From an uncultured archaeon (GTDB lineage: Archaea; Thermoplasmatota; Penumbrarchaeia; JASLWR01): a stretch of 64,000 bases of DNA. The position numbers and the translations under genes were made by a program. Positions within the stretch are counted from its first letter, which is position 1, and the number at the start of each line of letters is the position of its first letter. The stretch lies in contig CAYFHS010000001.1 in assembly GCA_964342815.1 (NCBI GenBank), positions 115,849-179,848 on the forward strand. Direction: 5' to 3'. Below, piece by piece: positions 36,885-58,500 of the stretch. The notes under the pieces were generated by a model. The model was not told where the DNA came from, did not search any database, and saw only the letters and a program-made list of their open reading frames with translations.

Positions 36885-39800
36885 TCATCCCTGGATCACT
36901 CCCTGCGTCTGGCATACCGGACAGGTGACCAGAGCCGGATATTCTATTATTTCAGCCGTGTAGTTATTGCCGCAAGAATGGCACTGCATCCGCAGGAATC
37001 CCCTTCGGTTATCGCCACCGTTTGGTGGCGGAAGAGAAGGGGAAGCAGTTTCCTGCGTTTCCGAGGATGAAACCAACAGATTCATCTGTTGGTGATTCAT
37101 AGTTATTTGATTCGTCGCCGGAGCCGGACTTTCCACGGGAACCGGCGGTACCACCGGAGGCGCGGACTCCGGTGATTGAGTAATTTTATCCAGATTTGAT
37201 AGATATGAATCGAGCTGTGAAAGATCGGTGGCCTCCGATGGGCTTGCTGGTGGCACAGTGGGCCCTGGCGGTGACGGACTCTGGGGAGTAATTGGTGCAG
37301 TTCCGGGTTCAACCGGGAGTATTTCTCCACTTGGCGTAATGGGATCAGGTGGGGCCGAAAAGGGAGTCTCCATCGCTTCCAAATTCGGCATTAAGGCTGT
37401 TTGAGCGGGCAAACCCTGAGAAGCTACCGGGAAGGAAGTGGAGGGATCGACACTAACCTGGGAGACAGAGGGCGGGGGTCCCGGCGGTAGTGCCATTCTT
37501 TCAAGGTTCTGCATGCCCTGATCGGTGGGGAATGAAGGAAGCGAATATGCTGCGTATGCAGGATCAGCCTGGCCATGGGGAACCAGCGGAGGTGTTTGAC
37601 CAGGCGGGATGGTGCCGAATTGCATCATCCCCGGTCCCGGGGGCAGCATCAGATATTGTCCTTCGGGTCCCTGCATCCCCCTGAAGGGTGCTTGTAATTG
37701 TGTCGGTTCCCCAAATCCCTGATGCCCGGCAGGAATACCCTGGCCTGGAGGATAAGGGGATTCCAAGTACTGCTGCTGCGTCATTGGTGCCTGAATCAGA
37801 GGTGTCGAGTCCAGTTCTGCTTTTTTTCTCTTTTTCCTGACTACAAAAAGGATGATCAAAACCAGCATGATCAGAAGTAAAATGGCCCCAAGAATGATAA
37901 ACAACAGATAAGAATCTCCACCCATAATTCCGCTGCTGTCCTGGATAATAATATCTGGCTCACCGTCCGGGGAATCCGCCCCGTTATTCGGATCGGTACC
38001 TTTTTCTCGCTCCAATCCGTCAGAAAAACCGTCACCGTCGCTATCACGTTCATAGTCTGCTTTTTCTACCACGGTAATCTTCACTTTGTCCGTCTCGTTG
38101 TAACCATGGCCGTCTGAAACGAATACCGTTATGGTGTGTTTTCCAGCGAGTAAATCGGTACTGAAATAAGCTCCGGACCCAATGAACTGGGTGTAACTAT
38201 TATTTGACGACCAGAAAAAGCTTAGATTGTCCCCGTCCTCGTCGCTGGAATCCGATGCATCGAAATCAATTAAACTGTCGTACCTGAAATACGAGCCTTG
38301 TTCGGGGGACGATATTATTATCTCTGGCTTGGAATTCACCCATATCCGGTACTGACTTGACTCATTGTAACCCGTACCCAGCATGTCATCGGCACGCCAC
38401 CGGATGTTATTATCGCCGCCCCATTCGAACTCCACTTCCATAAATATCTGTGTGGGATTACCAGCAACAACATTGACTGCTTTCTTCCAGGGCTTGAAAT
38501 TCTTATTGTCGCCCCCCCCGGTAGAAACGGAATACTCAATTGTTGAGACGTCAACCCCGCTTCCGTCATCGAATATCTGTATGAAACATTCCACATCCCT
38601 GCTATCTGCGTACATGTCCTCGGTGGGTGTGAAGGAGCCATAATAAACCTGCGTAGTGTCGATCTTGAGATTGAATTTATCTGAAAGCGTCATTGGATTA
38701 CCAACCATGTCAGTTCCACGGAACATGATATAGTTGTCCTTGCCCTCTGCGTATGGGAAAGTTACGGTTATTTCGTATTCATTCTCATCGGATTTGTTTA
38801 TATTTTCGGCTTTGATAGGTATCCATTGACCGAAATCATTCGGACCTGACGTGGATATCCGCGCCTGGATGCTCGCCGTGTCCACACCGCTCCCGAAGTC
38901 GCTGACCATGATCTTTGTTTCAATAACTTTTTGAGTGTACCATTCTAACTGCGGTCGTATCTCTCCAGCAAAACTGATCGGGGTGATATCTACCTTGATA
39001 TTAACCGGAGCCGATTCAGAAAAACCGTTTTCCGAAATGTCCTTAGCACGCCATTTGATATAGTTCTCCTCCCCCTCCGGAAATACGTATTTTATATTCG
39101 GGGTCAGTTTGTCTCCGTCTACAGGCACCCACGCAGGTATCCACATATTGAAGCCGTTCACCCCGTTCGCAGAGATCGAATATTCAATGGTGCTTCCGTC
39201 AACCCCGGACCCCTCTCCGTCGTCTATCTCAACCGAGCAGTCGATATCGCTGTGATTGTGCCAGGAGCCGTCCGGGGGCGCAATATTTGAAAATGTAGGT
39301 GGCGTAAGATCCACCAGAATACCTGAAGAAGCGGCTTCACCGATATTTCCCACATTGTCCACACACCATACATGGATGGTGGCATATCCTTCGGGCAGTT
39401 CGTTAACTTCCACCTCTGTAACATTTATGAAAGTCCCGTTATCGGTTCCTGAATTGTCGACGTGTGAATAATAATATCCAAGGAGGCCCGAGTCGGGATC
39501 TTCAACATCGAGCCAGGTGGCGAACATCAGCGGTTGATCCGTATTTTCCGTTTCCTTGTCCTTGAATCCGTCGGCATGGCATACGAGGTTCAATGGGGGA
39601 TGAGGAGGGTCGTTATCCACCTTCAGAGGATAAGTTAAATTCGTTTTGCACGCGCCTGATCCAGGAATGTTCTCGATGGTGATTGAATACCACTCCTGGG
39701 AATCGGTGACGTTCCTCGTTGTGATATTAAGCTGAATTTTATTCCCGCTGCTCTGGTTGCTCCACCACGCGTTTCTTTGCGAATCAGCCACCTTGACATC

Positions 39801-41168
39801 GAAATAGTCATTGTCGGGGTAGATATTCATCGAATCATAATAAACCACCGTTAAATTGGATATTCTTAAGTTCTCGCTCCCTCTTACCCAACCCCCCCGG
39901 TCCAGCTTTCCCTGGTACTGACCGGTGAAATCGGGGGTGCCGACGAAATCCAGGTCCTTCACCACCCTGAACAGATAGGGGAACCGATCCCGATGAAACT
40001 CACCCGTCACCGAGGAAGTGTTCACGAAACAATCAACTGGTTCCCTGTGTGGAAATGTGAAATTGAAACCTACCGTAAAATTGAGCCACCACCTCTTCAC
40101 ACCGTCATTGGTAACCGTGCAATCGTCGAGAAACAGCTGAACGTGACCTTTAACATCCTTGAGTTTGAAGAATTCTTGTCTTGTGAAGTTATAACCCAGC
40201 GTGGCATTTGTTTCGTTGTAATCCAGGTGAACCTTGACTTCAGAAACTTCGTTCAGGTCTTTGGGCGAGGTAACATTGACGGTAAGGCCGTAGGTCTCGT
40301 ACTTGGCATAACAAACGACGTCGTTTCCGCCTCCCCTGCCCTTGACCCTGGTGTTCTCTGCGAATGAAAGCCCACCGTATGGACACATTATTGAGCGGAA
40401 ATCTATGCGAACGGTATACTGTCGGATGAAATTCCTGTTCCTATCGTATACCTTCATTGGCATGCTGGACGAGCCGCCGGCCACCACGTAATAGCGGTCG
40501 CCATCGAAAGCGAAGTTCATACAGGTTGAGCTTATACCACCGTAATTCCAGGTGATGTCATTCGCCCCTATGTTGCCGCCCGTAAAGCGGTTGGTTGACC
40601 ATCCGTACCAGGTATTACCGGAAGCGATCCAAACGGCTCCGTCCGTTACCGAAAAATAATAACTGGAGACCGATCGGGTTATTGATGAACTGGAAACATG
40701 GTTCCCTGTCATGGTCACCTTGTGAATGGTGCTTCCGGACCCGTAATACAGGTAAATTCCATCGGTCCCCACTGCATACCCGGACCCACCATGAGCCAGG
40801 TTATAGGTCGTCTGCTGTCCGTTGGTGGTGGAATAACGGTACAAAGTACTTCCGGTACGAGCATAGACCCACTGGCCGTCGGGAGTCATGCAGGGCATCG
40901 TCTGCGAACCAGGGATGTTCATATTGACAATATTCTGGATATTGCTCCCGTCCTTGTTCAAACGCTTCAGCCAGCCGCTGTTGTAATTGCGCGCGTAGAG
41001 ATAATCGGGACTAAGGGCTGCGCGGGACCCCATATTGTTACTGTCAGGGGATTTTTCCACTTCGGGATTTTCGATTATATTAATTACATCCGCATACTGT
41101 TCCACGAGTATGGAAAATCCGGCAGCAACCATGAAAAGAACCAGTATAACCGTGATTGTTTTCTTCAT
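36885..41168 (-). CDS. Array paralog P4: surface protein with beta-propeller-like head
   Basis: Head has repeated blades (TPDGQWVYAR, GTDGIYLYYG, TDGAVWIA, AFDGDRYYVV); stalk from CYAKY (Cys 40313); carries the 108-bp insert. Confidence 0.88.
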   Translation of the reverse strand: MKKTITVILVLFMVAAGFSILVEQYADVINIIENPEVEKSPDSNNMGSRAALSPDYLYARNYNSGWLKRLNKDGSNIQNIVNMNIPGSQTMPCMTPDGQWVYARTGSTLYRYSTTNGQQTTYNLAHGGSGYAVGTDGIYLYYGSGSTIHKVTMTGNHVSSSSITRSVSSYYFSVTDGAVWIASGNTWYGWSTNRFTGGNIGANDITWNYGGISSTCMNFAFDGDRYYVVAGGSSSMPMKVYDRNRNFIRQYTVRIDFRSIMCPYGGLSFAENTRVKGRGGGNDVVCYAKYETYGLTVNVTSPKDLNEVSEVKVHLDYNETNATLGYNFTRQEFFKLKDVKGHVQLFLDDCTVTNDGVKRWWLNFTVGFNFTFPHREPVDCFVNTSSVTGEFHRDRFPYLFRVVKDLDFVGTPDFTGQYQGKLDRGGWVRGSENLRISNLTVVYYDSMNIYPDNDYFDVKVADSQRNAWWSNQSSGNKIQLNITTRNVTDSQEWYSITIENIPGSGACKTNLTYPLKVDNDPPHPPLNLVCHADGFKDKETENTDQPLMFATWLDVEDPDSGLLGYYYSHVDNSGTDNGTFINVTEVEVNELPEGYATIHVWCVDNVGNIGEAASSGILVDLTPPTFSNIAPPDGSWHNHSDIDCSVEIDDGEGSGVDGSTIEYSISANGVNGFNMWIPAWVPVDGDKLTPNIKYVFPEGEENYIKWRAKDISENGFSESAPVNIKVDITPISFAGEIRPQLEWYTQKVIETKIMVSDFGSGVDTASIQARISTSGPNDFGQWIPIKAENINKSDENEYEITVTFPYAEGKDNYIMFRGTDMVGNPMTLSDKFNLKIDTTQVYYGSFTPTEDMYADSRDVECFIQIFDDGSGVDVSTIEYSVSTGGGDNKNFKPWKKAVNVVAGNPTQIFMEVEFEWGGDNNIRWRADDMLGTGYNESSQYRIWVNSKPEIIISSPEQGSYFRYDSLIDFDASDSSDEDGDNLSFFWSSNNSYTQFIGSGAYFSTDLLAGKHTITVFVSDGHGYNETDKVKITVVEKADYERDSDGDGFSDGLEREKGTDPNNGADSPDGEPDIIIQDSSGIMGGDSYLLFIILGAILLLIMLVLIILFVVRKKRKKAELDSTPLIQAPMTQQQYLESPYPPGQGIPAGHQGFGEPTQLQAPFRGMQGPEGQYLMLPPGPGMMQFGTIPPGQTPPLVPHGQADPAYAAYSLPSFPTDQGMQNLERMALPPGPPPSVSQVSVDPSTSFPVASQGLPAQTALMPNLEAMETPFSAPPDPITPSGEILPVEPGTAPITPQSPSPPGPTVPPASPSEATDLSQLDSYLSNLDKITQSPESAPPVVPPVPVESPAPATNQITMNHQQMNLLVSSSETQETASPSLPPPNGGDNRRGFLRMQCHSCGNNYTAEIIEYPALVTCPVCQTQGVIQG
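36990..37097. repeat. 108-bp in-frame palindromic insert, copy in P4
   Basis: Lies between two ATG codons (36987-36989 and 37098-37100); absent from P1, P2, P3, P5, P6; contains nested inverted repeats. Confidence 0.85.
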
Positions 41169-41477
41169 ACATTCACCGTGATCAGCTCAGTGGGCGGTAA
41201 TATTACCGATGACGGAATTGGATTTAACATTTGGAGATTACTCAGCGGGAAGCAAAAACATAGAGCCTTCCGGTATATATAATATTGGAATGAAATGGAT
41301 GACAAAAAAAAGTTTGTCTGAGGACCGGATGGGAGAATTTAGAAAAAGGTTAAGTAGCAAATTATAGGATTGGAGATAATCCGATTAGAAATTAACAAAA
41401 AATATTTATTATTTATTTAAGGCCCTTCAACCCAAATCAATATAACATATGATACCTATATGTTACTCTGTGATATA

Positions 41478-41777
41478 ATGTCTACGCAAGTTAACATCAG
41501 ATTGGACGACAATTTATTAAGTGAAATAGACGCGATTACAAAGGTTCTTCATGTTTCCCGAACTGAATGGTTAAGGATGAAAATTGCTTTTGCAGTAAAA
41601 GATGATACTTTAAGATTTTCTGAAGCAATTGCAATGGAATATGCAAAAGGACACCTTAGTGATATGGAATTAAGAGAAATGCTGGGTTCCGATGCCGATG
41701 AGGTAATATACATCGTAAAACATATGAAAAGAGGCAAGAATTATATCGAAGATATGGTGGACAAGGGACTTTTATGA
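41478..41777 (+). CDS. Ribbon-helix-helix antitoxin-like protein (VapB/UPF0175-like)
   Basis: TQVNIRLDDNLLSEIDAITKVLHVSRTEWLR fits the RHH pattern; ATGA overlap with the downstream PIN gene; the track starts at 41460. Confidence 0.8.
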   Translation: MSTQVNIRLDDNLLSEIDAITKVLHVSRTEWLRMKIAFAVKDDTLRFSEAIAMEYAKGHLSDMELREMLGSDADEVIYIVKHMKRGKNYIEDMVDKGLL

Positions 41778-42241
41778 AACCGTCGCTTGCTTTCGATACT
41801 TCGGCCCTTGTTTCTCTGGGCCATACGGAATTGATAGAATTGATCTTGGATAACTATAATGTCATCATTTCCGATAGGATATTAAAAGAATTGGCTGAGA
41901 TCGGAGGAAAGAACGACAAAGATGCTAAAGCGGCCAATAAATGGTTGGAATACTCCGACAAGATGGAATTGAAAGATGCAAAGAAAAGCATAATTGGTGA
42001 GGAAGAACTATTGGAAATAGCTCAACGCGAAAAATTATCAATGGTGACCGATGACGTAAAAGCAACTAAAAAATTCGAGGATCAAATAGATTGGATATTT
42101 AGTGTCCATGTAGTTTTCCTTCTCTATTATAAAGGTATAATTACAAAAGAAAGAGCAATTTTTTCCATAGAAAAGATGATAAGTGAGAGATCTTGGAAGA
42201 ATAATATTATCTCCTTGACGGCAAAGTTACTTTTTCAATAA
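41774..42241 (+). CDS. PIN-domain ribonuclease (VapC-like, DUF3368-like)
   Basis: AFDTSALV, ILKEL, GEEELLEIA, VTDD acidic tetrad; translationally coupled to the RHH gene. Confidence 0.85.
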   Translation: MKPSLAFDTSALVSLGHTELIELILDNYNVIISDRILKELAEIGGKNDKDAKAANKWLEYSDKMELKDAKKSIIGEEELLEIAQREKLSMVTDDVKATKKFEDQIDWIFSVHVVFLLYYKGIITKERAIFSIEKMISERSWKNNIISLTAKLLFQ

Positions 42242-42375
42242 ACTATCGTGATATCTGAAGTAAGTTTTTGAAAAATTCATTTTATTTATTACTCACAATG
42301 GGTGCAGCACAGAATAACGCACTTATTCGGTACTCGCCTCAATGATATAATGGACAAATCCACCGAGAATCACTT

Positions 42376-45300
42376 CTAAGCCGAGTTGATAACACCCTGC
42401 GTTTGACATACCGGGCAGGTGACCAGAGCCGGGTACTCTATTATCTCCGCCGTGTAGTTATTGCCGCATGAGTGACACTGCATTGTCATTTCATTCGTCG
42501 ATGGTGCTGGTGTTTCTACCGGAATCGGGGGAGCGGTTGGTGGTGTAACTGGTGGTGTGACTGGTGGTGTGACTGGTGGTGTAACTGGCGGTGTATCTGG
42601 TGGTGTGACTGGTGGTGTAACTGGCGGTGTATCTGGTGGTGTGGTTGGTGGTGTGGCTGGCGGTGTATCTGGTGGTGTAGTTGGTGGTATGGCAGGTGGT
42701 GTGGCTGAGGGTGTGGTTGGCGGTGCCGGTTCGGGGGTTTTTGTCATATCCTCGAGATATGCTAGATACGAATCCAGTTCGGACAAATCTCCGGTCCCTG
42801 CCGGGGGTGCGGCGGGTTCACCAGGGGCAATATCCTGGCCCGGGATGGGCGGCGGAGAAGGTTGTGCCGGTGACGGCGGGAAAGAAATGTCCGCCGCGGG
42901 CATGTTCATCGGGTCTGCAAGGGGTGTCGGAAGCGGAACATCGAGACCTGAGAATACTACTGGCGCCGGACCTGGCTCGGGAGCTGGCGGAAGTGCCAAT
43001 CTAGTAAGTTCCTGCATTCCCTGGTCGGTTTGGAACGAGGGAAGCAAATAAGTGCTTTCTCCGGTAAAGCCTGTATTCAAAGCAGGTGGACCCTGAAATG
43101 TCTGACCTGGGCTGGCAGTGGGGAACTGGCTTTGGTTCACAAAACCCGGACCGGGAGCCAGCATCAGGTGTTGAGGTTGTGAACCCGGCATTCCTGTCAT
43201 AGGAGCCTGCATTCCTCCGCCATACATTTGCGGACCCGGCGGGGTAAACTGCCCTGAATGCGGTCTCTGCCCGTATGGGAGCTGCTTAGGCCCCGCTTTC
43301 ACAGGGGCGTCCACCTTCTCCTCTTTGGATTTCTTTTTTTTCCGGACGATAAAAAAGATGATCAGGATCAATAATATAAGAATAAAAATGCAGCCAAGGA
43401 TGATCAACAGCATCGATGAACTTTCACCCAGTATTCCCGCGGTTTCAGGGGGTACGATATCGGGCTCGCCCTCCGGAGTAGTATCACTGTTGTACGGATC
43501 GGTTCCGGATTCCCTCTCGAAACCGTCTGAAAAACCGTCCCCGTCGCTGTCCGTCTCGTAATGCAGCCTGCTTCCCACCTCGATATTTACATCCGTGCTC
43601 TCGTTGTAGCCGTGCCCGTCATAAACGAACAACGTGATGATGTGTTTTCCGGGGGCCAATCGCCCGCCAAAAAGTGGAAGTGAACCAAGAGATTTGTTCG
43701 CAGTGACGTTGCTGGACCAGTAAAAGCTCAGATTGTCCCCGTCATCATCATATGAGTCCAGTGCGTCGAACATTATTTCCCTGTCGTATCTGAAATACGA
43801 AGCTTGATCGGGAGAAGAAATAATTGCTTCAGGTCTTGAATTTACCCATACCCTGTATGATTTCGATATGTTATGGCCGGTCCCCATCATATCATCGGCT
43901 CGCCACCTGATGTAATTGTCAGGCCCCCATTGAAACTCCACATCCAGAAGAACCTGGGTCGGATTTCCCGTAACAACATTCACCACCTTCTTCCACGGCC
44001 CAAAACTCTTATTGTCGCCCCCCGCCCCACTGGCTATGGAATACTCCACGGTTTCCGGGTTGACACCGGAGCTGTCGTCCATGATCTCGATAAAACATTC
44101 AACCGTCTGACTGTTGGAATAATCGTTCTCATCCGGAGTGAAAATACCGAAATATACCGGGGATATGTCAATTTTCAGATTGAATTTGTCCGAAAGGGTG
44201 TAGGGATTGCCCACGAGGTCAGTTCCCCGGAACATGATGAAATTATCCGCACCCTCCTCATAGGTGAACGTTACGGTTATCTCATAACCGTCCACATCCG
44301 AGCCGCTGATGCTTTCAGGTACTATAGGTATCCAATGGCCGAAATCATTGGGACCCGACGAGGATATCCTCGCTTCGAAACTTTCTTGATTCACCCCGCT
44401 TCCTAAGTCGCTCACGGTTATTTTTGTAGTTATCGATTTTTGGCTATACCATTCCGTTTCCGGAGAAATCACGTTTGCGAATTTGATAGGAGTTGTGTCG
44501 ATCTTAATATTTACAGGTGAGGATTCGACGAAACCGTTTCCCGAAATATCTTTGGCACGCCATTTTATAAAATTTTCCTCGCCTTCCAAAAAGACATAAT
44601 TGACGCCTGGGCTCATGGGCTCATTTTGCACGGGCAGCCAGGCTGGTATCCAGAAATCAAACCCGTGAACTCCATTGTTGGAGATAGAATACTCCACTGT
44701 CGCGCCATCGACCCCGGATCCCTCTCCGTCATAAATGTCCACCGAGCAGTCGATATCAGTATGATTGTGCCAAATCCCGTCCGCGGGAGCGTAATTCGAA
44801 TAATACGGGACGGTCAGGTCCACCAGTATCTCTGAAACTTCGCTGTCACCGATATTTCCCACATTGTCGACACACCAGACGTATACCGGCACGACACCCT
44901 CGGGAAGTTCATCTATCTCCACTTCTGTTTTATTTGTAAAAGATCCGTTCTCCGAGGTCGAATTGTCGTCATGGGAATAATAATATCCCCTAAGACCCGA
45001 AGCAGGGTCTTCCACGGGGTCCCAGGTGACGAAGACCTCGTTCTTGTCGGTATTTCCGGTCTCCTTGTCTTTGAAATCGTCGGCATGGCACAGGAGGTTC
45101 ACAGGTGACAGCGGTGCGTCGGCATCGATCTTGAGAGGATAATCAAGATTCGCCGCGCAAATTCCATTTTCAGGTATGTTCTCGATACTTATTGTATATT
45201 CTTCGTCCGGGTTCGTGACATTTCCCGATACTGCTTCTATTGAAACCTTCCCGCCGCTGGATTCATAGTCCCACCATTCGTTACCTTTTCGGTCGCTAAT

Positions 45301-46776: not shown

Positions 46777-46931
46777 TCAATTCAACCTCTTTTCAGGCCA
46801 ATTGGCGAACTTTGTCGCCCGCTATGATGTCGCTAGAAGGGGTAATTTGATGACAAATCCATGGTCTTATGAATAGATAATGTTTTCGTTTGAAAAAGAT
46901 AATACTCGCACATATCTAAATCGATTCCCGA

Positions 46932-49900
46932 TCATTGTGATTCTATGATGCCCTGCGTCTTGCAGACCGGGCAGGTGACCAGAGCCGGGTACTGGGATAT
47001 TTCTGCATTGTAGTTATTTCCGCATGAGTGGCACTGCATGGTTATTTCGTTAGTGACAGGCGCGGGGATCCCTTCATGAGCTTGTAGTGAGGCTGGCTGA
47101 AATGGCTCCGGTGGTGTGGGTAAAGTATCCAACGCGCCTATGGCCTGAACTGCCTCAGGTTGTAATGACAGATCCGGATTGTGTATCGAAGGCGCAGCGG
47201 CCGGATTCATTATTGCTTGCCCGCCCGCAGGATCCGGTCCGGGCGGAAGGGCCATTAGCTCGAGGTTCTGAGCCCCCTCTTCTGTAGAGAATAATGGTAG
47301 GGAATATGCGGTACTGCCTGAGGGACCCGGCCCTGCAGGACTGTAGGGGGGAAGTTGTGGAGAATAGTCATTTTGCGGTATTTGAGCTTGCGGGGCTTGA
47401 CCGGGAACGGGCGGGCCGTATTGGTTTGTGTTAGTAATACCCGCCCCCGGAGGGAAAACTGCCCCGGGGGCGCCGGCTCCCTGCATCCCCCATGCTGCTC
47501 CCTGGTATTGTGCCATTTCCCCGTATCCCTGGGGTAAGCCCGTGGGATGATATTGACCCTGGGGATAAGGATGCTGTGGAGGTCCGTATTGTGATTGCAT
47601 CGGGATGGGCATACCCGATGGTGAAATTTGTTCTGAATCCTTTTTCTTCCTTTTCCTTATAATGAACAAGATCACCAGAATGACAATTATCAGCAGTAAG
47701 ATACAACCTACAATCACAAACAACAGGGAAGAGTCTTCACCCAGTATTCCTCCGCGATCCTGATCAACGATATCCGGCTTACCTCCCGGGAAAACCGCTC
47801 TGTTATACGGGTCGGACCCTTTTTCACGCTCCAAGCCGTCGGAAAATCCATCCCCGTCGCTGTCCTTTCCATAAACAGCCGGGCCGCCCACCTCAATTCT
47901 GATTTTCTCACTCTCGTTGTAGCCGTGACCGTCTGACACAAATAAGGTTATAGTATGTTTTCCAGGTTCTAATTGAAAACTGAAATAGGCTCCTGAACCA
48001 ATTTGACGATTCGCACTGACATTTGAGGTCCAGTAATGGGTGAGGTTGTCCCCATCCTCGTCGGAGGAATGGGTGGCATCGAAGGTAATTTCGCCATCGA
48101 ACCTGAAATATGATCCGTCATCGGGAGACGATATCACAACTTTTGGTATGGAATTCACCCATACCCTGTAAGGCATCGACTCATTGAAACCGGTCCCCGT
48201 AAGATCGTCCGCACGCCATTTTATATAATTATCGTCACCCCATTCGAATTCCAGTTTCATAAGAACCTGGGTGGGATTTCCCGTAACCACATTTACTGCG
48301 TTTTTCCAGGGGTCGAAACTTTCATTGTCGGTCCCTCCGTATCCTATGGAATATTGAACCGTTGACGGATTCACACCCGAACCGTCATCTAATATCTGGA
48401 TGAAACATTCCACAGTTCTATCGTCAGCATATTCCTCCTCATCCGGTTTAAAGGTCCCGAAATATACCGGGGAACTATCTATTTTCAGATTGAATTTATC
48501 GGATAGTGTATATGGAGTTCCAACCATGTCGGTTCCGCGAAACATGATATAGTTGTCCTTTCCTTCCGCATAGCTGAAAGTTACCGTTATTTCGTATTGA
48601 CCTTCAACTGGTTCATGTATGTTCTCGGCATCTATGGATATCCATTTACCGAAATCATTTGGACCTGCAGTGGATATTCTTGCCTCCAGGCTTTCGAGGT
48701 CCACCCCGCTTCCGGTGTCACTTACGGTTATTGTTGTGCTAATTGTATTTTGCGCGTACCATTCAATCTGCGGAGTTATCTCATCATTGAAACTAACAGG
48801 GGTGATATCCACCTTTATGTTTACGGGCGGAGATTCGGAAAATCCGTTCTCTGAAATATCCTTGGCACGCCATTTTATGTAATTTTCTTCACCCTCCGGA
48901 AAGATGTATTTAACACTGGGGATTATGGGATTTCCTTCTTCCGGCACCCACGCGGGCATCCAGAAATTGAATCCGTGCGTTCCGCTTGCAGAGATCGAGT
49001 ATTCGATGGTGCTTCCGTCGACCCCTGATCCCGGTCCATCGAATATCTCAATTGAGCAGTCGATATCAGTATGATTGTGCCATGAACCATCCAGGGGTGT
49101 ATGATTTGAAAATACAGGCGGAGAAAGATCAACCAGTATTCCCGAAGAAGCCGCATCCCCAATATTCCCCACGTTATCGACGCACCAAACGTAAATTTCC
49201 GCGTATCCCTCTTCAAGCTCATCTATCTTAACTTCAGTAACATTGGTGAATGTCCCGTCAGTGGTTCCCGAATTGTCCGATTGTGAATAATAATATCCAA
49301 GAAGGCCCGAGGCCGGGTCCTCCACCGCATCCCAGGTTACGTACATCTCGGGCTGCTTGGTATTCCCGGTCTCCTTGTCCTTGAATCCTCCTGCACGGCA
49401 TTTGAGGTTTACGGGAAACAGGGGCGGTTCAGCATCGAGCTTAACGGGAAAGCTCAGATTGGTCATGCATATGCCCGAGCCGGGGATGTCCTCGATGGTG
49501 ATGAGATATTCCTCGTCCGGGTCGGTGGCGTAGCGCGTCCTTATTGGTAAGGAAATCCCCTCGACACTGGAACTGTTGTCCCACCATGTGTTTCCAAACC
49601 TATCAGTGATCCTGACATTGAAGAATTCGTCATCCGGATACAGCATAGGCGAACCCGCATAAACCACGGAAAGGTTGCTGACCGTGATGTTCTGACCTCC
49701 CTTTACCCAGTCCCCCGGATCGATTTTGCCCTGTTCTTCTCCGGAAAAAAACGGAGTGCCTGCAAATTCAAAATCGTTCTCCACCCTAAACAGCCATGGG
49801 AACCTGTCCATAGTATGTTCATTGGCCACCGAGCTGGTTTTGGTCAAGCAATCTATGGGTCTTTCGTGGGGAAATGAAAAATTGAATATCACAGAAAAAT

Positions 49901-50987: not shown

Positions 50988-51086
50988 ATTACACACTCAT
51001 TTTTAGGGTATATTCATTAATATCTAAATGTAAAAACGCAAAAGCAATAATATTTACACTATTTATTATTAGTTATCTTAAATAAA

Positions 51087-54000
51087 TTACATAGATTCGA
51101 TCATTCCCTGAGTCTGACAGACCGGGCAGGTGACCAGAGCTGGAAGCTGCACTATCTCGGCTGTATAATTGTTACTGCAAGAGTGACACTGTATCTGCTG
51201 GAATCCACTTCGATTACCGCCACTGTTTGGTGGCGGAAGAGAAGGGGAAGCAGATTCCTGCGTTTCCGAAGATGAAGCCAACAGACCCGTCTGTTGGCGA
51301 TTCATGGTTATCTCATTTGCAGCCTGGGCCGGAGTTTCCATCGGAACGGGAGGCTCCCGGATATCGGATTCCTCTTTTAAACTACCTATTGTGGCGAGAT
51401 AAGCGTCAAGTTCCCCGAGATCACCTGTATTGGCATTCGTAGGATCAATAATGGATGATGGACCTGTGGCTGCTGGGGCCGGAGGTGAAATTAGCTGTTG
51501 GCCGAAAGGAAACTGCTGTTCATCTACACTGGGCGATATGGTTTCAGGTTGTATCGGATTGATATTTGTTTGCGCTTCAGCGTGTATGGGTCCGGGAGGT
51601 AATGCCATCCTGTTGAGATTCTGCGAGCCTTGCTCGGTGGAGAACTGTGGAAGTGAGTAAGTGGTGCTGCCTGCGGCACCCGTACCAAGCTGACCGTATG
51701 GGATCTGCGGTTGTAATTGTAATGTGGGAGTTTGTCCGGGGGCAGCCGTCCCGAATTGCTGGGAGGCCCCCATCCCCGATCCCGAATTCATCATCATGGT
51801 AGGGGTATTCAGTCCTTGCATAGCCATGACCGCCGCTTGGTATTGCGCCATTTCTCCATAGCCCTGCTGCCCGGCTTCAGACATGTATTGACCCTGACCA
51901 TAGGGATGCTGGGATGGGCCGTATTGTGATTGTAGCGGGGGAGACTGGACGCTGGGTTCTTCGTCTTTTTTTCTTTTTCTCACTACAAAGAATATAACCA
52001 AAATCAGGATGATCAACAGTAATAATCCCCCAAGAACTACAAAAAGCAGTGAAGAACCTTCACTCAATATTCCCAATTTCTCCTGGACGACAATATCCGG
52101 CTCACCTTCCGGGGAAACCGCCCCGTTATGCGGGTCGGTACCTTTTTCGCGCTCCAACCCGTCCGAGAATCCGTCCCCGTCGCTGTCCCGCTCATAAGCT
52201 GCTTTAGAACCCACTTCGATTTTAACCTTCGCGCTCTCATTGTAACCATTCCCGTCTGACACGAATACAGTTATTGTATGTTTTCCAGGGGCCAGCACGG
52301 CATATTTAACACTGCCGACCCCCAGGAGCTGGTTGGCGCTGACATTGGATGTCCAGTAATAGGTGAGATTGTCTCCATCCTCGTCGGATGAATCGGAAGC
52401 ATCGAATGTAATTTCGCCGTCATAGCGGTAATACGACCCAGCTTCGGGAGATGAAATTTCTGCATCCGGCTTCGAATTCACCCATACCCTGTAAGGCAGT
52501 GACACATTGTACCCCGTTCCCATGACATCGTTGGCACGCCAACGTATGAAATTATCGGACCCCCATTCGAACTCCAACTCCATTAGAACCTGCGTGGGAT
52601 TCCCCTCTACAACGTTAACTGCCTTCTTCCACGGCCCAAAACTTTCATTGCCGCCGCCCCCTTTGGCGACAGAATATTCGACGGTTTGGGGATCTACCCC
52701 CGATCCGTCGTCCAGTATCTGTATGAAGCATTCCACGGACTTTCTGTCCGCAAAATCATTCTCGTCCGGTGTGAAATCGCCGAAATACACCGGGGAAGTA
52801 TCGATTTTCAGATTGAATTTGTCTGACGAGGTAAAGGGATTTCCCACCATGTCCGTGCCTCTGAACATGATGTAATTATCCTTCCCTTCCGGGTAAGTGA
52901 AAGTGACGGCTATTTCATAACCGTCGTCACCGAATTTAGTTATATTTTCCCGGTCAATTTGCATCCATGTGCTGAAATCATTTGGGCCCGACGTGGATAT
53001 CCTTGTTTCGAAGCTTTGCGGATCCAAGCCGCTTCCGGTATCGCTAACCGTTATCTTTGTTGTTATTGAATGGTGATCATACCAATCCTTCGGGGGTGAT
53101 ATCGCATCGGCAAAAATGACGGGAATCGTGTCGATCTTTATGTTTATGGAAGGCGATTCCGCAAAGCCGTTCCCCGAAACGTCCTTTACCCTCCATTTTA
53201 TGTAATTTTCTTCACTCTCCTCAAAGATGTATTTTACGCTGGCCACCGTCGGTTCGTTCTCTAGAGGCACCCATGCAGGTAGCCAGAAATCAAAACCGTG
53301 TACTCCATCATTGGACACGGAGTATTCTATTGTAGTGACGTCGACTCCCGAACCAGTGCCGTCATATATTTCCACCATGCATTCTATGTCCGTGTGATTG
53401 CGCCATGAACCGTCCAGGGGAGTATGGTTCGAAAAGACCGGCAGCGTAAGGTCCACCAGTATGCCCGAATTTCCTGCCTCTCCAATGTTTCCCACATTAT
53501 CGATGCTCCAAACGTAAATTTCCGCAAATCCTTCACCCAGCTCATCGATCTTTACTTCTGTTTCATTGGTGAAAGTCCCATTTGTGGTTCCCGAATTGTC
53601 CAAATGAGAATAATAATAACCCAATAGACCCGAAGCCGGGTCCTCCACTTCGTCCCAAGTGACGTACATCTCGGCCTGGTTGGTATTCTCCGTCTCTTTG
53701 TCCTTGAAACCCCCGGCCCGACACTTCAGATTAACGGGAAACAGGGGTGCTTCTGCATCGATCTTTACCGGGAAGCTTAGATTTGTCATGCAAATACCGG
53801 AACCGGGGATGTTCTCGATGGTTATGAGATATTCCTCAGCCGGGTCGGTGACCTTTTGCGTATTAATGGAAATTGAAATCCCTTCCACGCTGGATGAATT
53901 GTCCCACCACGTTTTTCCGGTCCTGTCCATGATCCTGACATTGAAGAATTCATCATCCGGGTACCGCATTGGAGACCCTGCATATATCACTGTAATATTG

Positions 54001-55418
54001 CTGACGGTGATTGCCTGATTTCCCTTTACCCATGATCCGGATTCGATTTTACCCTGTTCGTCCCCGAAAAAGAATGGTGTGCCTTTAAACTCGAAATCGT
54101 TCTCGACACGACAAATATGAGGGAATCTCTTCATCCGTGATTTGCCGTTGCTGGCTCTTATCTTGACAAAACAGTCAATCTTCTTCTCATGTGGAAAAGT
54201 AAAATTAAATCTGATGGAGAAATTTACAAACCATTTATCATCACCGTTATTTGAAAAAGCACTGTCTTTGACCAGAAGCTGCACATAGCCGTTTTCGTCC
54301 CCCAATTTGAAGAATTTCCTTTGCGTCCAGTTGAATCCCAGGGTGGCATTTGTTGTATTATAATCGAGCCATACCTCCATTTCAGAGGCATCGTCAAGGG
54401 TTTTGGTGGTGGTGATATTCACGCTGAGATTATATGAGCTGTACTCTGCATAACATACTTTTCCGTCGTCTATATCACCTTTCAATGCCGCAGATTCCAC
54501 GTTCGTGATCCTTACCCCCCCAATTTCGGGATAATGATAAACGTTTCCCTGATTCCAGACGAGAAGACTGTTGTCCTCTGCATTGTAAGAGGTATGGGCG
54601 ATGTATCCTCCGGCACCGAGACTGTTTGAGTACGAGCTACGGGAGGAAGTGCTGGTATCGTATTTGTAATTGAAGGTTGCGCTGTTGTATGAATTTCCCC
54701 AGTACAATACACCGCCGACCATGAATGCCCAGCCCACGTTTCCCTTGTTCCTGCCAGTATTCCAGGTTTTTAAAACGTTCAGATTTTCATCCAGTTGGCT
54801 CAATTGCATGGGTTGTGAGGTCGATGTCGCCCAGCAGACGTAGAGACCGGTCTCGTCACTCATAAGATTGATATCAGTGTAGCCGCCCCAATTGAAATGG
54901 GCCCGGTTGTGAAATCCCGCGTTTGGCAGTGCCCTCGATAGTACTTGAGCCATGTCCGTTGTCCTGCATTTTACCAGTGTGTTGCTGTTGTACTGCGCAT
55001 AGTAGAGATGGTTGTTGTAAATTGTGTGATAGGTTCCTTCGGATTGCCGTGGGAGATTAAATTGTCGAACACCGTTATTATTGATGAAGTTGGCCAGCGA
55101 AGTGTATCGATATACCGTTGACTCCCGATAGCTGTTATGATAGAACACATGTCCGTTCGATTCGTCCACATCTATAAAACCATAAGTGCTGAAACCACCC
55201 CTGATCTGCCCGAAATTATTTGATAATTGTCTCATCTCTTCATCGCTGCGTGTTTTTTTCACGCTGTTTTCCGCGGTCATTTCTCTTCTGACATTTATGG
55301 AAGTTTTCAGGGAGGGCTCCTCAATTGCGTCTGTAAGGTAGCTTTGGAAAGCCGTACTTATCATCACAACAAATATTGGGATGATTATTATCTTAGTCAA
55401 TTTCCGATTCTTTTTCAT
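51087..55418 (-). CDS. Array paralog P7: surface protein with olfactomedin-like head
   Basis: LPNAGFHNRAHFNWGGYTDINLMSDETGLYVCWAT...LSQLDENLNVLKTWNT...AFMVGGVLY...YKYDT...SYNAEDNSLLVWNQG matches olfactomedin motifs in order; stalk from CYAEY (Cys 54455); carries the 108-bp insert. Confidence 0.9.
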   Translation of the reverse strand: MKKNRKLTKIIIIPIFVVMISTAFQSYLTDAIEEPSLKTSINVRREMTAENSVKKTRSDEEMRQLSNNFGQIRGGFSTYGFIDVDESNGHVFYHNSYRESTVYRYTSLANFINNNGVRQFNLPRQSEGTYHTIYNNHLYYAQYNSNTLVKCRTTDMAQVLSRALPNAGFHNRAHFNWGGYTDINLMSDETGLYVCWATSTSQPMQLSQLDENLNVLKTWNTGRNKGNVGWAFMVGGVLYWGNSYNSATFNYKYDTSTSSRSSYSNSLGAGGYIAHTSYNAEDNSLLVWNQGNVYHYPEIGGVRITNVESAALKGDIDDGKVCYAEYSSYNLSVNITTTKTLDDASEMEVWLDYNTTNATLGFNWTQRKFFKLGDENGYVQLLVKDSAFSNNGDDKWFVNFSIRFNFTFPHEKKIDCFVKIRASNGKSRMKRFPHICRVENDFEFKGTPFFFGDEQGKIESGSWVKGNQAITVSNITVIYAGSPMRYPDDEFFNVRIMDRTGKTWWDNSSSVEGISISINTQKVTDPAEEYLITIENIPGSGICMTNLSFPVKIDAEAPLFPVNLKCRAGGFKDKETENTNQAEMYVTWDEVEDPASGLLGYYYSHLDNSGTTNGTFTNETEVKIDELGEGFAEIYVWSIDNVGNIGEAGNSGILVDLTLPVFSNHTPLDGSWRNHTDIECMVEIYDGTGSGVDVTTIEYSVSNDGVHGFDFWLPAWVPLENEPTVASVKYIFEESEENYIKWRVKDVSGNGFAESPSINIKIDTIPVIFADAISPPKDWYDHHSITTKITVSDTGSGLDPQSFETRISTSGPNDFSTWMQIDRENITKFGDDGYEIAVTFTYPEGKDNYIMFRGTDMVGNPFTSSDKFNLKIDTSPVYFGDFTPDENDFADRKSVECFIQILDDGSGVDPQTVEYSVAKGGGGNESFGPWKKAVNVVEGNPTQVLMELEFEWGSDNFIRWRANDVMGTGYNVSLPYRVWVNSKPDAEISSPEAGSYYRYDGEITFDASDSSDEDGDNLTYYWTSNVSANQLLGVGSVKYAVLAPGKHTITVFVSDGNGYNESAKVKIEVGSKAAYERDSDGDGFSDGLEREKGTDPHNGAVSPEGEPDIVVQEKLGILSEGSSLLFVVLGGLLLLIILILVIFFVVRKRKKDEEPSVQSPPLQSQYGPSQHPYGQGQYMSEAGQQGYGEMAQYQAAVMAMQGLNTPTMMMNSGSGMGASQQFGTAAPGQTPTLQLQPQIPYGQLGTGAAGSTTYSLPQFSTEQGSQNLNRMALPPGPIHAEAQTNINPIQPETISPSVDEQQFPFGQQLISPPAPAATGPSSIIDPTNANTGDLGELDAYLATIGSLKEESDIREPPVPMETPAQAANEITMNRQQTGLLASSSETQESASPSLPPPNSGGNRSGFQQIQCHSCSNNYTAEIVQLPALVTCPVCQTQGMIESM
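51195..51302. repeat. 108-bp in-frame palindromic insert, copy in P7
   Basis: Identical by eye to 55619-55726. Confidence 0.85.
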
Positions 55419-55487
55419 ATTTTAACTCCTCGGTTCCGGAAGAGAAATACTTGTCGAGATGATGGGGTGAAAACAATGAAATTCCAC

Positions 55488-55504
55488 TATTAATAGTTAT
55501 CCGG
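55488..55504 (-). promoter_or_regulatory. Candidate BRE-TATA upstream of P7
   Basis: Minus strand CCGGATAACTATTAATA. Confidence 0.45.
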
Positions 55505-55510
55505 AATATC

Positions 55511-58500
55511 TCATATGGATTCGATCATTCCCTGGGTTTGGCAGACCGGGCAGGTTACCAGAGCTGGAAGCTGCACTATCTCGGCTGTATAATTGTTTCC
55601 GCAAGAGTGACACTGCATCTGCTGGAATCCACTTCGATTACCGCCACTGTTTGGTGGCGGAAGAGAAGGGGAAGCAGATTCCTGCGTTTCCGAAGATGAA
55701 GCCAACAGACCCGTCTGTTGGCGATTCATGGTTATCTCGCTTGCTGCTTGGGCCGGTGTCTCCATGGGAACGGGAGGTTTGGGGGGCTCTGAGCCCGGTG
55801 ATTCAGTCATACCGCCCAATGCGGCCAAGTATGCATCCAGTTCTGCCAGGTCGCCGATATTATCTGAGGAGGGCCCGGTTGTCTCCATAGCAGGAGATGC
55901 TGCTGTTTCAGCCACCGTATCTGGCGGCGGAGACGGTAACGGTTCAGCTGGAAATGTCGAATCCACTCTCGTTGAAGATATTGGATCTGGCGGCGTTGGT
56001 AAAGGCGTTCCCGGCGATCCTGCATCCGGCAGGATGGGGGGTTGCAGAGGCATGTCAGGAACAGAAGGTGGATAAGCAATCCCCAAATCCGCTGCAACGG
56101 GTGCTGGAGGTGAGGCGGGGCCTGGAGGAAGCGCCATTCTTTGGAGATCCTGCAGTCCCTGATCGGTTTGGAAGGAAGGAAGTAAATAGCCAGGATCCGC
56201 TGGGATACCCGGGCCAATCCCCGGAGGACCCTGCTGGGATGGAAATGCTTGAAATGCGGGACCACCAGGAACAACGTGGGGCCCGGGAGGCAGCATCAAT
56301 TGCGGCGATTGTATCCCCTGCATTCCAAATCCCGCTCGATGGCCAGGGTCGGGACCTGAATATCCCTGCGAGACAGGAGTCTGGTACTGTCCCTGCTGGT
56401 AAGGGTGAGGACTAGGTCCTGGGTACGTCTGCTGCGTGGGACCCGGAGCGGAGGGGGCGGGTACCTTCTTTTCGGATTTTTTCTTTTTCCTTAAAATGAT
56501 GAAAATGATCAGTATCACTAACACGAGAAGGAAGATACAGGCTAGGATTATGAAAAGTAACGAAGATCCACCGCTCAGTATCCCGCCGGGTTCCGTGATC
56601 ACTATGTCGGGTTCGCCTTCCGGGATTACGGCGCCGTTGTGTGGATCGGTTCCGGACTCCCGTTCCAGACCATCCGAGAAACCATCCTCGTCGCTATCCT
56701 TTTCGTATTCGACCCGGCTGATCACCTCGATTTTTACTTTCTCACTCTCGTTGTATCCGTGGCCATCAGAAACGAATAAACTGATTGTATGTTTTCCCGG
56801 GGCTAATCGAACAATGAACTTGGCATCACGTCCGACAGAGCGGTTCAAACTGACATTGCTAGACCAGTAAAAGCTGAGGTTGTCCCCATCCTCGTCGGAG
56901 GACCCCGAAGCATCAAAGGCAATTTCGTCATCGTAACTGAAATATGACCCTTGAGCTGGTGATGTAATAATCGCTTCAGGTTTTGAATTCACCCATACCC
57001 GATAAGGGATCGATATGTTGTGTCCGGTCCCCATCATATCGTCGGCCCGCCAGCGGATGAAATTGGCGGCCCCCCAGTCGAATTCCAGCTCCATAAGAAC
57101 CTGTGTGGGATTGCCTTCTACCACATTTACTCCCTTGTTCCAGGGCCCAAAATTTTCATTGTCACCCCCGTTCGCAATTGAATATTCCACTGAAGAAGGG
57201 TTCACCCCAGAGCCGTCATCGAATATCTGAATGAAACATTCCACCATCTTGTCGTCCGCATAATCGTTCTCTAAAGGCGTGAAAATCCCGAAATATACTG
57301 GCGAGGTGTCGATTTTCAGATTGAATTTATCAGATAATGTTATGGGGTTGCCAACCAGGTCCGTTCCCCTGAACATGATGAAGTTATCCTTTCCCTCCGC
57401 ATACCTGAATGTGACTGTAAGTTCGTGGCTGCCGCCATCGTTTTCACTGATGTTTTCGGCGTCTATTGACATCCACCGGCCGAAATCATTAGGGCCGGAA
57501 ACAGAAATTCTTGTTTCGATGCTGTCCGGCTTCACTCCACTTCCGATATCGCTAACCAATATCGTTGTTGAAATTTCTGCATAATCATACCATTCCATCT
57601 GAGGCGATATCTCCGCTGCGAAATTGATGGGAGTTGTATCAACCTTCAGGTTAACAGATGACGATTCGACAAATCCATTTCCTGTTATATCCTTTGAACG
57701 CCATTTTATATAATTATCTTCGCCCTCATGAAATATATATTTTGTACTTGGCACCATGGGTTCATTATTCTCGGGTATCCACGCAGGTATCCAGTAATCG
57801 AAACCATGCACTCCGTTATCCGACACTGCATACTCGATGGAGCTGCCGTCGACTCCCGATCCCGCCCCATCAAAGATCTCGATGGAGCAATCTATGTCCG
57901 TCTGATTGTGCCATGAACCATCCATGGGGGTATGGTTCGAAAAAACTGGCGGTGAAAGGTCCACAAGTATGCCGGAGCTTGCGGATTCGCCGATATTCCC
58001 GACCATGTCAATGCACCATACGTAGATCGAGGCAAATCCTTCGTGAAGGTTCTTCAATTCCACCTCGGTGACATTCAGAAAGGTACCGTTGATACTTCCC
58101 GAATTATCTGCTTGTGAATAATAATATCCCTTGAGTCCGGATGCGGGATCCTCTACGGCATCCCAGGTTACGAACATACCGGGCTGATTCGTATGCTCGG
58201 TCTCCTTATCCTTGAAATCATCGGCATGACACTTTAGGTTGACGGGATAGAGAGGAGGGTCCGCATCAATTCGTACGGGGAAGGTCAGATTTGTCATGCA
58301 AATGCCGGTTCCGGGTATATTCTCGATGGTGATATAATATTCTTCTTCCAGGTCGCTAACGTTTCTCGAAGTCAGATTTATTTCGACGCTCTCGTTACTG
58401 CTTTCATTGTCCCACCAAGCTTGCCCCGTTTTATCGGTAATCTTGACATCGAAATAGTCGTCCTTGGGGTAGATATCAACGGCTCCCGCATATCGTACCA

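Follow-up and report, generated by a model that had tools for sequence, protein, structure and literature searches.

A palindromic repeat inserted in frame in three archaeal surface protein paralogs is a likely small mobile DNA element

The window, a 64,000 nt stretch of DNA from an uncultured marine archaeon, encodes the surface protein paralogs P1 to P8 on the negative strand. Three of these, P4, P7 and P8, carry an in-frame palindromic insert of 111 nt ahead of a C-terminal zinc ribbon. Based on sequence comparisons, we suggest that a small, non-autonomous mobile DNA element gave rise to the insert, and that the paralog copies stem from one old insertion that was spread by gene conversion. 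We consider this explanation likely.

The insert and its host genes

In brief, the element consists of an ATG and a 108 nt core, built from two adjacent hairpin domains. The initial annotation described 36 extra codons and a repeated ATG or ATA between the tail and the zinc ribbon of P4, P7 and P8, and was right in both coordinates and content (Table 1). The filled sites read ITM(36 codons)MQCHSC in P4 and P8 and ITM(36 codons)IQCHSC in P7, and the in-frame reading of the P4 copy is M-NHQQMNLLVSSSETQETASPSLPPPNGGDNRRGFLR. The inserts of P7 and P8 are identical at 108 of 108 positions, and that of P4 is approximately 89% identical to both. The five other paralogs had been described as lacking the insert; they do indeed read (I/T)M-QCHSC directly, with only one ATG before QCHSC.

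Table 1. Paralogs, element copies and empty sites, given as positions in the window.
Feature	Position	Strand	Description
Paralog P4	36885..41168	-	1427-aa surface protein; TM helix, P/Q-rich cytoplasmic tail, C-terminal zinc ribbon; element present
P4 element copy	36990..37100	-	111 nt: ATG 37098-37100 and 108-nt core 36990-37097
ATG directly 3' of P4 element	36987..36989	-	Met codon, also present in empty paralogs
P4 zinc ribbon and stop codon	36885..36986	-	QCHSCGNNY...CPVCQTQG
Paralog P7	51087..55418	-	1443 aa; olfactomedin-like N-terminal domain; element present
P7 element copy	51195..51305	-	ATG 51303-51305 and core 51195-51302; 3' triplet ATA at 51192-51194
Paralog P8	55511..59824	-	1437 aa; element present
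P8 element copy	55619..55729	-	ATG 55727-55729 and core 55619-55726; 3' ATG at 55616-55618
P1 empty site	23775..23777	-	Single ATG ahead of QCHSC
P2 empty site	28266..28268	-	Single ATG; sister-species ortholog filled by 225-nt composite of same repeat family
P3 empty site	32598..32600	-	Single ATG
P5 empty site	42481..42483	-	Single ATG
P6 empty site	47037..47039	-	Single ATG

To keep the zinc ribbon of P4 in frame, the 111 nt must be either translated or excised precisely. The conserved frame and the conserved downstream zinc ribbon suggest that the insert is translated as a flexible linker. As 111 is divisible by three and the reading frame that starts at the ATG is open, insertion at a methionine or start codon adds a Ser/Pro/Gly-rich stretch of 37 residues and leaves the gene unbroken. 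The antisense strand is likewise open in the corresponding frame.

The left terminus of the element is ATGAATCACC... and the right terminus is ...GGATTCCTGCGG. The two ends are not inverted copies of each other, so that the element lacks terminal inverted repeats. All copies keep the 5' ATG while the 3' triplet varies, being ATG at about 15, ATA or Ile at about five and another triplet at about four of approximately 24 independent sites. Thus, the core is flanked by ATG on one side and mostly ATG or ATA on the other, with a net gain of 111 nt per insertion; the empty sites of the sister species are strongly diverged. The ATG...ATG flank is real, and an ATG carried by the element together with a preferred AT(G/A) target would explain it equally well as a target duplication. 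The ATG directly 3' of the P4 element may accordingly represent the target triplet or a duplicate of it. Another module is nested within hairpin 1, at the ATG of its loop.

The filled sites of P4 and P8 are bridged without differences by contigs from four DNA runs, each belonging to a different study; for the P8 element, independent contigs of runs X4 and X8 bridge the site with zero differences. An empty allele was not seen at P4 or P8 in the bridging contigs, where coverage is approximately 3x and rare variants are dropped. The sequencing runs listed as containing this DNA include no RNA run. A joint between 37028 and 51239 was considered as a deletion and rejected, as it represents a contig of another or mixed copy.

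A dispersed repeat family

Searches with blastn, nhmmer and a covariance model showed that the element has far more copies than the three first described. The source genome contains approximately 10 near-full copies on 8 contigs and at least five partial ones, along with mosaic forms, and the sister species (congeneric MAG ETNP2_MAG_1) gave approximately 35 covariance model matches. Five to six copies in ETNP2_MAG_1 are identical within unrelated flanks, which points to a recent burst.

Four pairs of filled and empty orthologs were found, each differing by exactly 111 nt. The glycerate kinase gene is filled in the source genome and empty in the sister species, while the start codon of the phosphopantothenate synthetase gene and two intergenic sites are filled in the sister species and empty in the source genome. 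A copy upstream of a purH-like gene is common to both species.

In the source genome, the in-frame hosts are the surface paralogs, the glycerate kinase, where the element lies between DUF4147 and MOFRL, and a Fic protein. In the sister species, copies are placed exactly on two start codons. Further in-frame hosts in ENA assemblies, known as peptides only, are UvrC, a BioF-like aminotransferase, a ferredoxin-thioredoxin-reductase-like protein and a DUF4350 protein; their orthologs in the source genome (52-70% identical) are without the insert. The antisense frame of the element is used within three further proteins. Altogether, at least 12 host proteins contain the palindromic repeat in frame, in two orientations. 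Copies also occur intergenically, and those in genes lie in both orientations relative to their hosts. The composite copy in the sister-species ortholog of P2 is 225 nt long, again a multiple of three, and free of stop codons.

We found no match to the element in 35 other genomes of the class. An exact-pattern scan of 185,579 species gave the sister MAG as the sole match, and a scan of JGI metagenomes gave matches at sister-species sites only. As far as can be seen, the repeat family is modular and confined to one marine Thermoplasmatota genus and a close uncultured relative.

Origin of the paralog copies

The presence of the element in the paralogs does not track orthology between the source and sister species; the sister-species orthologs of P7 and P8 are empty. 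The zinc ribbons of P7 and P8 differ from each other at 7 of 96 sites and from their own orthologs at 25-26 of 96, and the 3' ends of the paralog genes show gene conversion. The combination of CCAACAG/CTGTTGG with TAA is common to P4, P7/P8 and the 225 nt composite of the sister species, and is missing from the dispersed copies. These common derived bases speak for a single old insertion that was passed on by conversion rather than for three separate ones, and the copies in P4, P7 and P8 are probably not independent insertions.

It should be noted that P7 and P8 show 0 differences in 113 positions across the element, whereas the flanks differ at 7 of 48 positions upstream and approximately 8 of 100 downstream. 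Such a pattern is not expected from simple old gene conversion. It could be explained by a second recent short-tract event, by re-insertion or by collapse of the repeat in the metagenome assembly.

An alternative is that the element was inserted three (or two) times independently and site-specifically at the ATG ahead of the ribbon, or that it homed from a filled to an empty paralog. We find this unlikely. The family does strongly prefer ATG/ATA sites, the orthologs of P7 and P8 are empty, and the P7/P8 identity spans exactly the element, with bases -10, -11 and +113 already differing. However, a target of 3 nt alone cannot select the same codon in four genes of 4.3 kb, and the P7/P8-type sequence has no second genomic copy elsewhere that could act as a master. 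Conversion of the paralog 3' ends is moreover visible independently of the element, and the paralog copies have derived bases in common that are missing as a set from the dispersed ones.

Returning to the single old insertion, we suggest that the element landed, most likely before the two species split, at the methionine codon that separates the zinc ribbon from the disordered cytoplasmic tail. The copy would then have moved among the paralogs, and been lost from some of them, via gene conversion of their 3' ends.

Folding, covariation and alternative readings

On the coding strand of P4, hairpin 1 covers positions 37067-37100 and a long three-helix hairpin covers positions 36991-37057. The structural description in the initial annotation largely agrees with our analysis. 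Hairpin 1 exists, with two pairs that covary between P4 and P7/P8, and so does the shifted hairpin 2, CGCCACC/GGTGGCG. The outer stems CGCAGGAA/TTCCTGCG and TCCCCTTC/GAAGGGGA are present in P4 and partly degraded in P7/P8, where the 12 bp helix with two G-U pairs represents an alternative register. The minimum free energies of P4 and P7 are -54.0 kcal/mol (z = -7.5) and -48.0 kcal/mol (z = -5.6) respectively, and for neither was any of 200 shuffles as stable. The complementary strands fold with z = -6.3 and -5.0 (0/200 shuffles as good in each case).

In an alignment of 14 distinct copies of the family, 93.3% of the cells are paired. Ten pairs are changed in both partners; shuffles gave 3.3 +/- 1.3 such pairs (0/500), and slid controls gave 2-4. 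The suspected covariation is thus significant. Templated correction of one palindrome arm on the other, without selection, can also yield compensatory changes. One-sided stem changes give 16 A.C mismatches and 1 G.T on the ATG strand, or 12 against 1 as distinct events (p = 0.003), and wobble pairs survive on the strand complementary to the mRNA.

The last observation bears on the possibility that the insert acts at the RNA level, as an intron-like sequence, a regulatory mRNA structure or a non-coding RNA gene embedded in other genes. The predicted fold is very stable and backed by covariation, and precise removal would be compatible with the in-frame length, but we regard such a role as very unlikely. 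A.C mismatches on the mRNA-sense strand, with wobble pairs kept only on the opposite one, disfavour the mRNA signal that had been put forward as an alternative to a mobile element. Copies are intergenic as well as in both orientations relative to their host genes, and an Rfam search of 13 copy-bearing loci gave nothing relevant. The two junctions do not form a bulge-helix-bulge, as no helix joins them: they sit at the bases of separate hairpins, hairpin 1 for the 5' junction and the long hairpin for the 3' one. The 225 nt composite, with its length divisible by three and its lack of stop codons, is what read-through would lead one to expect.

That the insert is an ancestral linker of the protein family, a part of the gene that was deleted from five paralogs, can practically be dismissed: all filled genes have it at the same codon and conversion from an empty neighbour could produce the empty states, but the same 111 nt is found 80-93% identical in unrelated genes and intergenic DNA on other contigs, orthologous sites are empty, identical sister-species copies stand in unrelated flanks, and dispersed copies such as those inside glycerate kinase, Fic and UvrC refute such an origin of the sequence.

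Possible mechanism and search for a transposase

For a mobile DNA element, the hairpins may have been kept since the DNA would have to fold single-stranded to move. The palindromes near the termini, the lack of terminal inverted repeats and of a demonstrable target duplication, the fixed short adjoining sequence and the strand-biased decay make the element resemble PATEs, the transposase-free relatives of IS200/IS605.

A transposase with matching ends, which the initial annotation proposed to look for, was not recovered. There was no match to Y1 (PF01797) or TnpB genes in the source genome, which is 89% complete. One IS110-type gene is located on a small contig of this genome, with no element-like sequence nearby. 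Searching for left and right element ends 0.4-5 kb apart gave no autonomous parent in the source genome, and the longest relatives of the element, approximately 390 nt, are non-coding and without an ORF. The sister species has two full Y1 loci with hairpins of their own (CCAGC..CTAAAGG..GCTGG type) and their own solo-end repeats. These were rejected as a source, since scans with the element HMM and the end motifs gave no match; their ends form a separate repeat family.

We also considered a more specific reading, which we hold to be possible but doubtful. The family would owe its mobility to a strand-specific mechanism that acts on single-stranded DNA and inserts beside CAT/ATG, using an unrecognised or trans-supplied enzyme. 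With its own ATG, a length divisible by three and both orientations open, the element would be a dedicated coloniser of methionine and start codons that copies precisely between paralogous sites. Such copying is suggested by P7 and P8, whose copies are identical although their flanks have diverged.

Comparison with known elements

The Rickettsia palindromic elements RPE-1 to RPE-10 (Ogata et al. 2000), as summarized in PMC10969869, are palindromic repeats of approximately 100-150 bp in tens of copies. According to that summary, many copies lie within the reading frames of unrelated housekeeping genes, which gain a peptide but stay intact; the elements have a conserved ORF and no known transposase. 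The archaeal element is likewise palindromic and of similar size and copy number, with a conserved ORF and in-frame copies in many unrelated protein genes. It differs in its archaeal host, its fixed ATG start, the ATG/ATA flank and the start codon landings, and in being modular and mosaic with two opposite-strand frames in use. The likeness is one of behaviour, and we treat the element as an analogue and not a member of the RPEs because of the archaeal host and the confinement to one genus. Of the suggested MITE or RPE-like nature, the RPE-like part is upheld by the dispersed in-frame copies and the empty orthologs; a strict MITE is not, given the lack of terminal inverted repeats.

The PATEs of Haloquadratum walsbyi are transposase-free relatives of IS200/IS605, with palindromes that match those of resident IS605-type transposons (PMC3119063). 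The element studied here shares with them an archaeal host, a length insufficient to encode a transposase (relatives here are at most about 390 nt, with no ORF), palindromes near the ends, the lack of terminal inverted repeats and of a demonstrable target duplication, and the occurrence of heterogeneous mosaic forms and nested insertions. In contrast to the PATEs, the palindromes here are not those of resident IS605-type transposons: PF01797 is absent from the source genome, and the Y1 loci, which were found in the sister species only, end in unrelated sequences. In-frame insertion into genes is not reported for PATEs (PMC3119063).

"Peel and paste" elements such as IS608 and ISDra2 have subterminal imperfect palindromes, a short fixed adjoining sequence, no duplication and strand specificity (PMC3201880, PMC5027513). 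The subterminal palindromes, fixed adjoining sequence and strand bias seen here are a mechanistic analogy only; unlike in IS608, the outer stem begins at most 2 nt from the end and no TnpA is linked.

MITEs and REP/BIME sequences are short, non-autonomous, structured and multicopy (PMC10969869, PMC3733652). The archaeal family also forms BIME-like mosaics of hairpin units but lacks terminal inverted repeats, a GTAG/CGTC tag and a RAYT; PF01797, which covers RAYTs, has no match in the source genome. Nor does this genome contain a longer element with the same ends, as would be expected for a strict MITE. Compared with the 20-40 nt palindromes of REPs, the 111 nt unit is much longer, and it is often intragenic.

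Significance

To our knowledge, the in-frame palindromic elements of Rickettsia have been a curiosity for 25 years. An unrelated archaeal family now behaves in the same way and offers unusually clean comparative material: a burst in the sister species, filled and empty pairs differing by exactly 111 nt, a fixed ATG boundary and strand-biased decay of the stems. The tandem gene array lets one insertion be traced through gene conversion. Taken as a whole, this material offers concrete and testable hints on how such elements move and why genes tolerate their insertion. The extra 37 residues should be annotated as repeat-derived and not as family-specific domains. Selfish repeats appear to supply new linker peptides to archaeal proteins.

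The in-frame insert and its host genes

The window belongs to contig C1 of a 4.35 Mb assembly (116 contigs, 89% complete) and holds nine tandem minus-strand genes encoding proteins of 1354-1521 aa. Eight of these, P1-P8, are built alike: N-terminal domains that vary, PKD/TSP3-like repeats, a single TM helix, a tail rich in Pro and Gln and, at the C-terminus, the zinc ribbon QCHSCGNNY...CPVCQTQG. P7 has an olfactomedin-like domain (residues 86-297; PF02191, E = 9e-41), of a family known chiefly from animals.

The initial annotation proposed a palindromic element of 36 codons in three paralogs, with the other five genes reading directly into the ribbon. The coding strands of P1-P8 bear this out. 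In P4, P7 and P8, ..ITM is separated from QCHSC by 36 additional codons plus a triplet that reads ATG in P4, ATA in P7 and ATG in P8, and P1, P2, P3, P5 and P6 read (I/T)M-QCHSC without the insert. The 108-nt core is identical in P7 and P8 and approximately 89% identical to both in P4. Every stem named initially is found in the inserts, and the observation is both real and correctly interpreted.

Three of the unit's six frames contain no stop: the one set by its ATG, the +2 frame and a single frame on the antisense strand. The insert is probably translated as a flexible linker, given its Ser/Pro/Gly-rich composition, its location either between a disordered tail and the ribbon or between two domains, and the conservation of the ribbon that follows it.

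Table. Array genes and other features in the genome of the window (prefix G000) and its sister species (prefix G003); L numbers are extracted loci, and filled or empty denotes presence or absence of the element.
Feature	Location here	Location in sister species	State here	State of sister ortholog
Nine-gene array	window 18964-59824
Ribbon-bearing array genes (8 here, 5 in sister species)	window 18964-59824	G003:C103:15449-42492 (L087, L088)
P1			empty	empty
P2			empty	filled
P3			empty	no partner
P4			filled	no partner
P5			empty	empty
P6			empty	no partner
P7	window 51087-55418		filled	empty
P8			filled	empty
Composite, 177 nt, member of the element's repeat family	G000:C3:28998-29176
Composite, 183 nt	G000:C1:238562-238746
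Glycerate-kinase insertion, ~204 nt		L049:2790-3005 = G003:C138:7970-8185
Element on small ORF start codon		L029:1264-1878 (G003:C136)
Hairpins flanking Y1 gene		L091:1350-1430, 2030-2112 (G003:C158)

A dispersed repeat family

The element is not confined to the three paralogs. Genome-wide searches with blastn, nhmmer and a covariance model found seven more near-full copies, all on other contigs, along with partial and mosaic copies. The family consensus starts with ATGAATCACCCACAG... and ends with ...GGATTCCTGCGG. In-frame copies lie in a glycerate-kinase-family gene, between the DUF4147 and MOFRL domains, and within a Fic gene. An antisense copy covers the final codons of a 1095-aa surface/HTH protein, and further copies precede a purH-like gene or lie in intergenic DNA. 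Longer, non-coding relatives of up to 390 nt have the common 5' module and similar 3' ends with different hairpin modules in the middle. In composite copies an additional module, followed by ATA, lies directly 3' of an ATG in the hairpin 1 loop; it is nested there in both composites of the table.

Within the genus we compared one genome, the MAG Thermoplasmatota archaeon ETNP2_MAG_1, here called the sister species. It has 35 model matches, including five identical copies in unrelated flanks; metagenome contigs provided a sixth such copy. The glycerate-kinase ortholog is empty and at this site differs from the filled gene by exactly 111 nt. Sites filled in the sister species but empty here again differ by 111 nt, one of them exactly at the phosphopantothenate synthetase start codon. 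Upstream of the purH-like gene the two species share an orthologous copy, with 96% identity.

The empty sister glycerate-kinase gene carries another in-frame insertion (68 aa) near its C-terminus, made of a second repeat family. This family, of ~75-80-nt modules, is far commoner, with at least 46 matches here and at least 49 in the sister species. Elsewhere in the sister genome, a copy of the 111-nt element coincides exactly with the start codon of a small ORF that comes directly after a 78-aa ORF, an arrangement like that of toxin-antitoxin genes. The longest ORF starts at the element's own ATG, and the small ORF gave no Pfam match.

The family gave no match in the two other genera of the family/order or in 33 further genomes of the class. 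An exact-pattern search of 185,579 species representatives gave no other species, and all JGI metagenome matches are sister-species sites. Protein searches of ENA assemblies found the sense-frame peptide within UvrC, a BioF-like aminotransferase, a ferredoxin-thioredoxin-reductase-like protein and a DUF4350 protein. All four belong to a more distant relative; their orthologs here are 52-70% identical and have no insert. The antisense-frame peptide was found inside three more proteins.

Folding, covariation and strand asymmetry

Single-sequence folding gave -54 kcal/mol (z = -7.5) for the P4 insert and -48 kcal/mol (z = -5.6) for P7, and no shuffle matched these native energies. The complementary strands fold similarly. 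In 14 distinct copies 93.3% of cells are paired. The proposed compensatory stem changes also stood: 10 pairs have both members changed, where shuffles gave 3.3 ± 1.3 (0/500) and slid registers 2-4. Covariation occurs in helices 1, 3 and 4, and the outer helix 2 is invariant. We infer that single-strand folding is under selection for mobility. Templated arm-to-arm correction in palindromes could yield some of the compensatory pairs without selection.

One-sided stem changes, counted without two composite copies, comprise 16 A.C and 1 G.T on the ATG-strand (12 versus 1 distinct events, p = 0.003), so that wobble pairing is kept only on the complementary strand. For in-gene sense copies this strand is the template and not the mRNA, which argues for a role of the fold at the DNA level or in antisense. 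Strand-biased C-to-T mutation on the complementary strand would give the same pattern. Under either account the two strands of the element are not equivalent.

History of the paralog copies

Genes were paired across species by a tree of the full proteins, and the insert has a non-orthologous distribution among the paralogs. The filled sister gene, the P2 ortholog, carries a 225-nt composite at the identical codon, with 5' and 3' modules as in the element plus two additional hairpin segments; its length is a multiple of three and it is stop-free. The composite, P4 and P7/P8 all have CCAACAG/CTGTTGG in hairpin 1 together with a TAA preceding the 3' stem, a combination missing from the dispersed copies. 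The composite differs from P4 at 9 positions and from P7/P8 at 9, and has an intermediate state at both covarying hairpin 1 pairs. The 3' ends of the array genes are mosaics, and the zinc ribbons of P7 and P8 differ at 7 of 96 sites, compared to 25-26 of 96 between each and its own ortholog. The simplest history is probably a single insertion predating the species split, after which gene conversion and unequal exchange would have carried the insert into some of the paralogs and erased it in others.

P7 and P8 do not fit smoothly into this history, as their elements are identical (0/113 differences) within diverged flanks (7/48 just upstream, ~8/100 downstream). Very recent short-tract conversion could explain this, as could precise re-insertion or assembler collapse of near-identical repeats; independent contigs verify the junctions in P8 and P4 and do not resolve that of P7.

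The P7 ortholog is placed differently in the sister array, and intergenic spacers move together with the downstream gene. Together with the differing gene counts, these features point to a tandem family undergoing active recombination.

Insertion site and relation to known elements

The element has no terminal inverted repeats. Its 5' ATG is invariant, and each filled/empty pair differs by 111 nt, made up of one ATG and the core. At approximately 24 independent sites, tallied by eye from printed flanks, the triplet after ..CTGCGG is ATG in ~15, ATA or Ile in ~5 and other in ~4. Both a 3-nt duplication of a preferred ATG and an element-borne ATG inserted before AT(G/A) fit; seen on the other strand, the latter is an element that ends in CAT and inserts 3' of a CAT. 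With either target, the ATG-linked site, the 3n length and the open first frame explain why insertions that hit a Met or start codon stay in frame.

IS200/IS605 elements are inserted next to a short fixed sequence and cause no duplication, and the reading with an element-borne ATG resembles them. They have subterminal palindromes and strand-specific single-strand 'peel and paste' movement (PMC3201880, PMC5027513). PATEs, their transposase-free archaeal relatives, have no TIR, near-terminal palindromes, no target duplication and mosaic forms (PMC3119063).

The genome of the window gave no Y1 or TnpB match and has one IS110-type gene, unlinked to the element. The sister species, with its recent burst, has two intact Y1 genes; their flanking hairpins differ from those of the element and are themselves abundant solo repeats. 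No transposase in either genome is tied to the family, and for these reasons the IS200/IS605 link is an analogy and not membership.

One IS200-like Y1 gene in the sister species lies between two similar CCAGC..CTAAAGG..GCTGG-type hairpins, each end having at least 15 solo repeats in that genome, often at contig ends. These look like a PATE-like family of their own, which the genome of the window apparently lacks.

Among described elements, the Rickettsia palindromic elements behave most similarly (PMC10969869). The archaeal MITE list in the same review mentions no in-frame case. The element is one more well-documented case, and not a new category, of behaviour that seems too little described in archaea.
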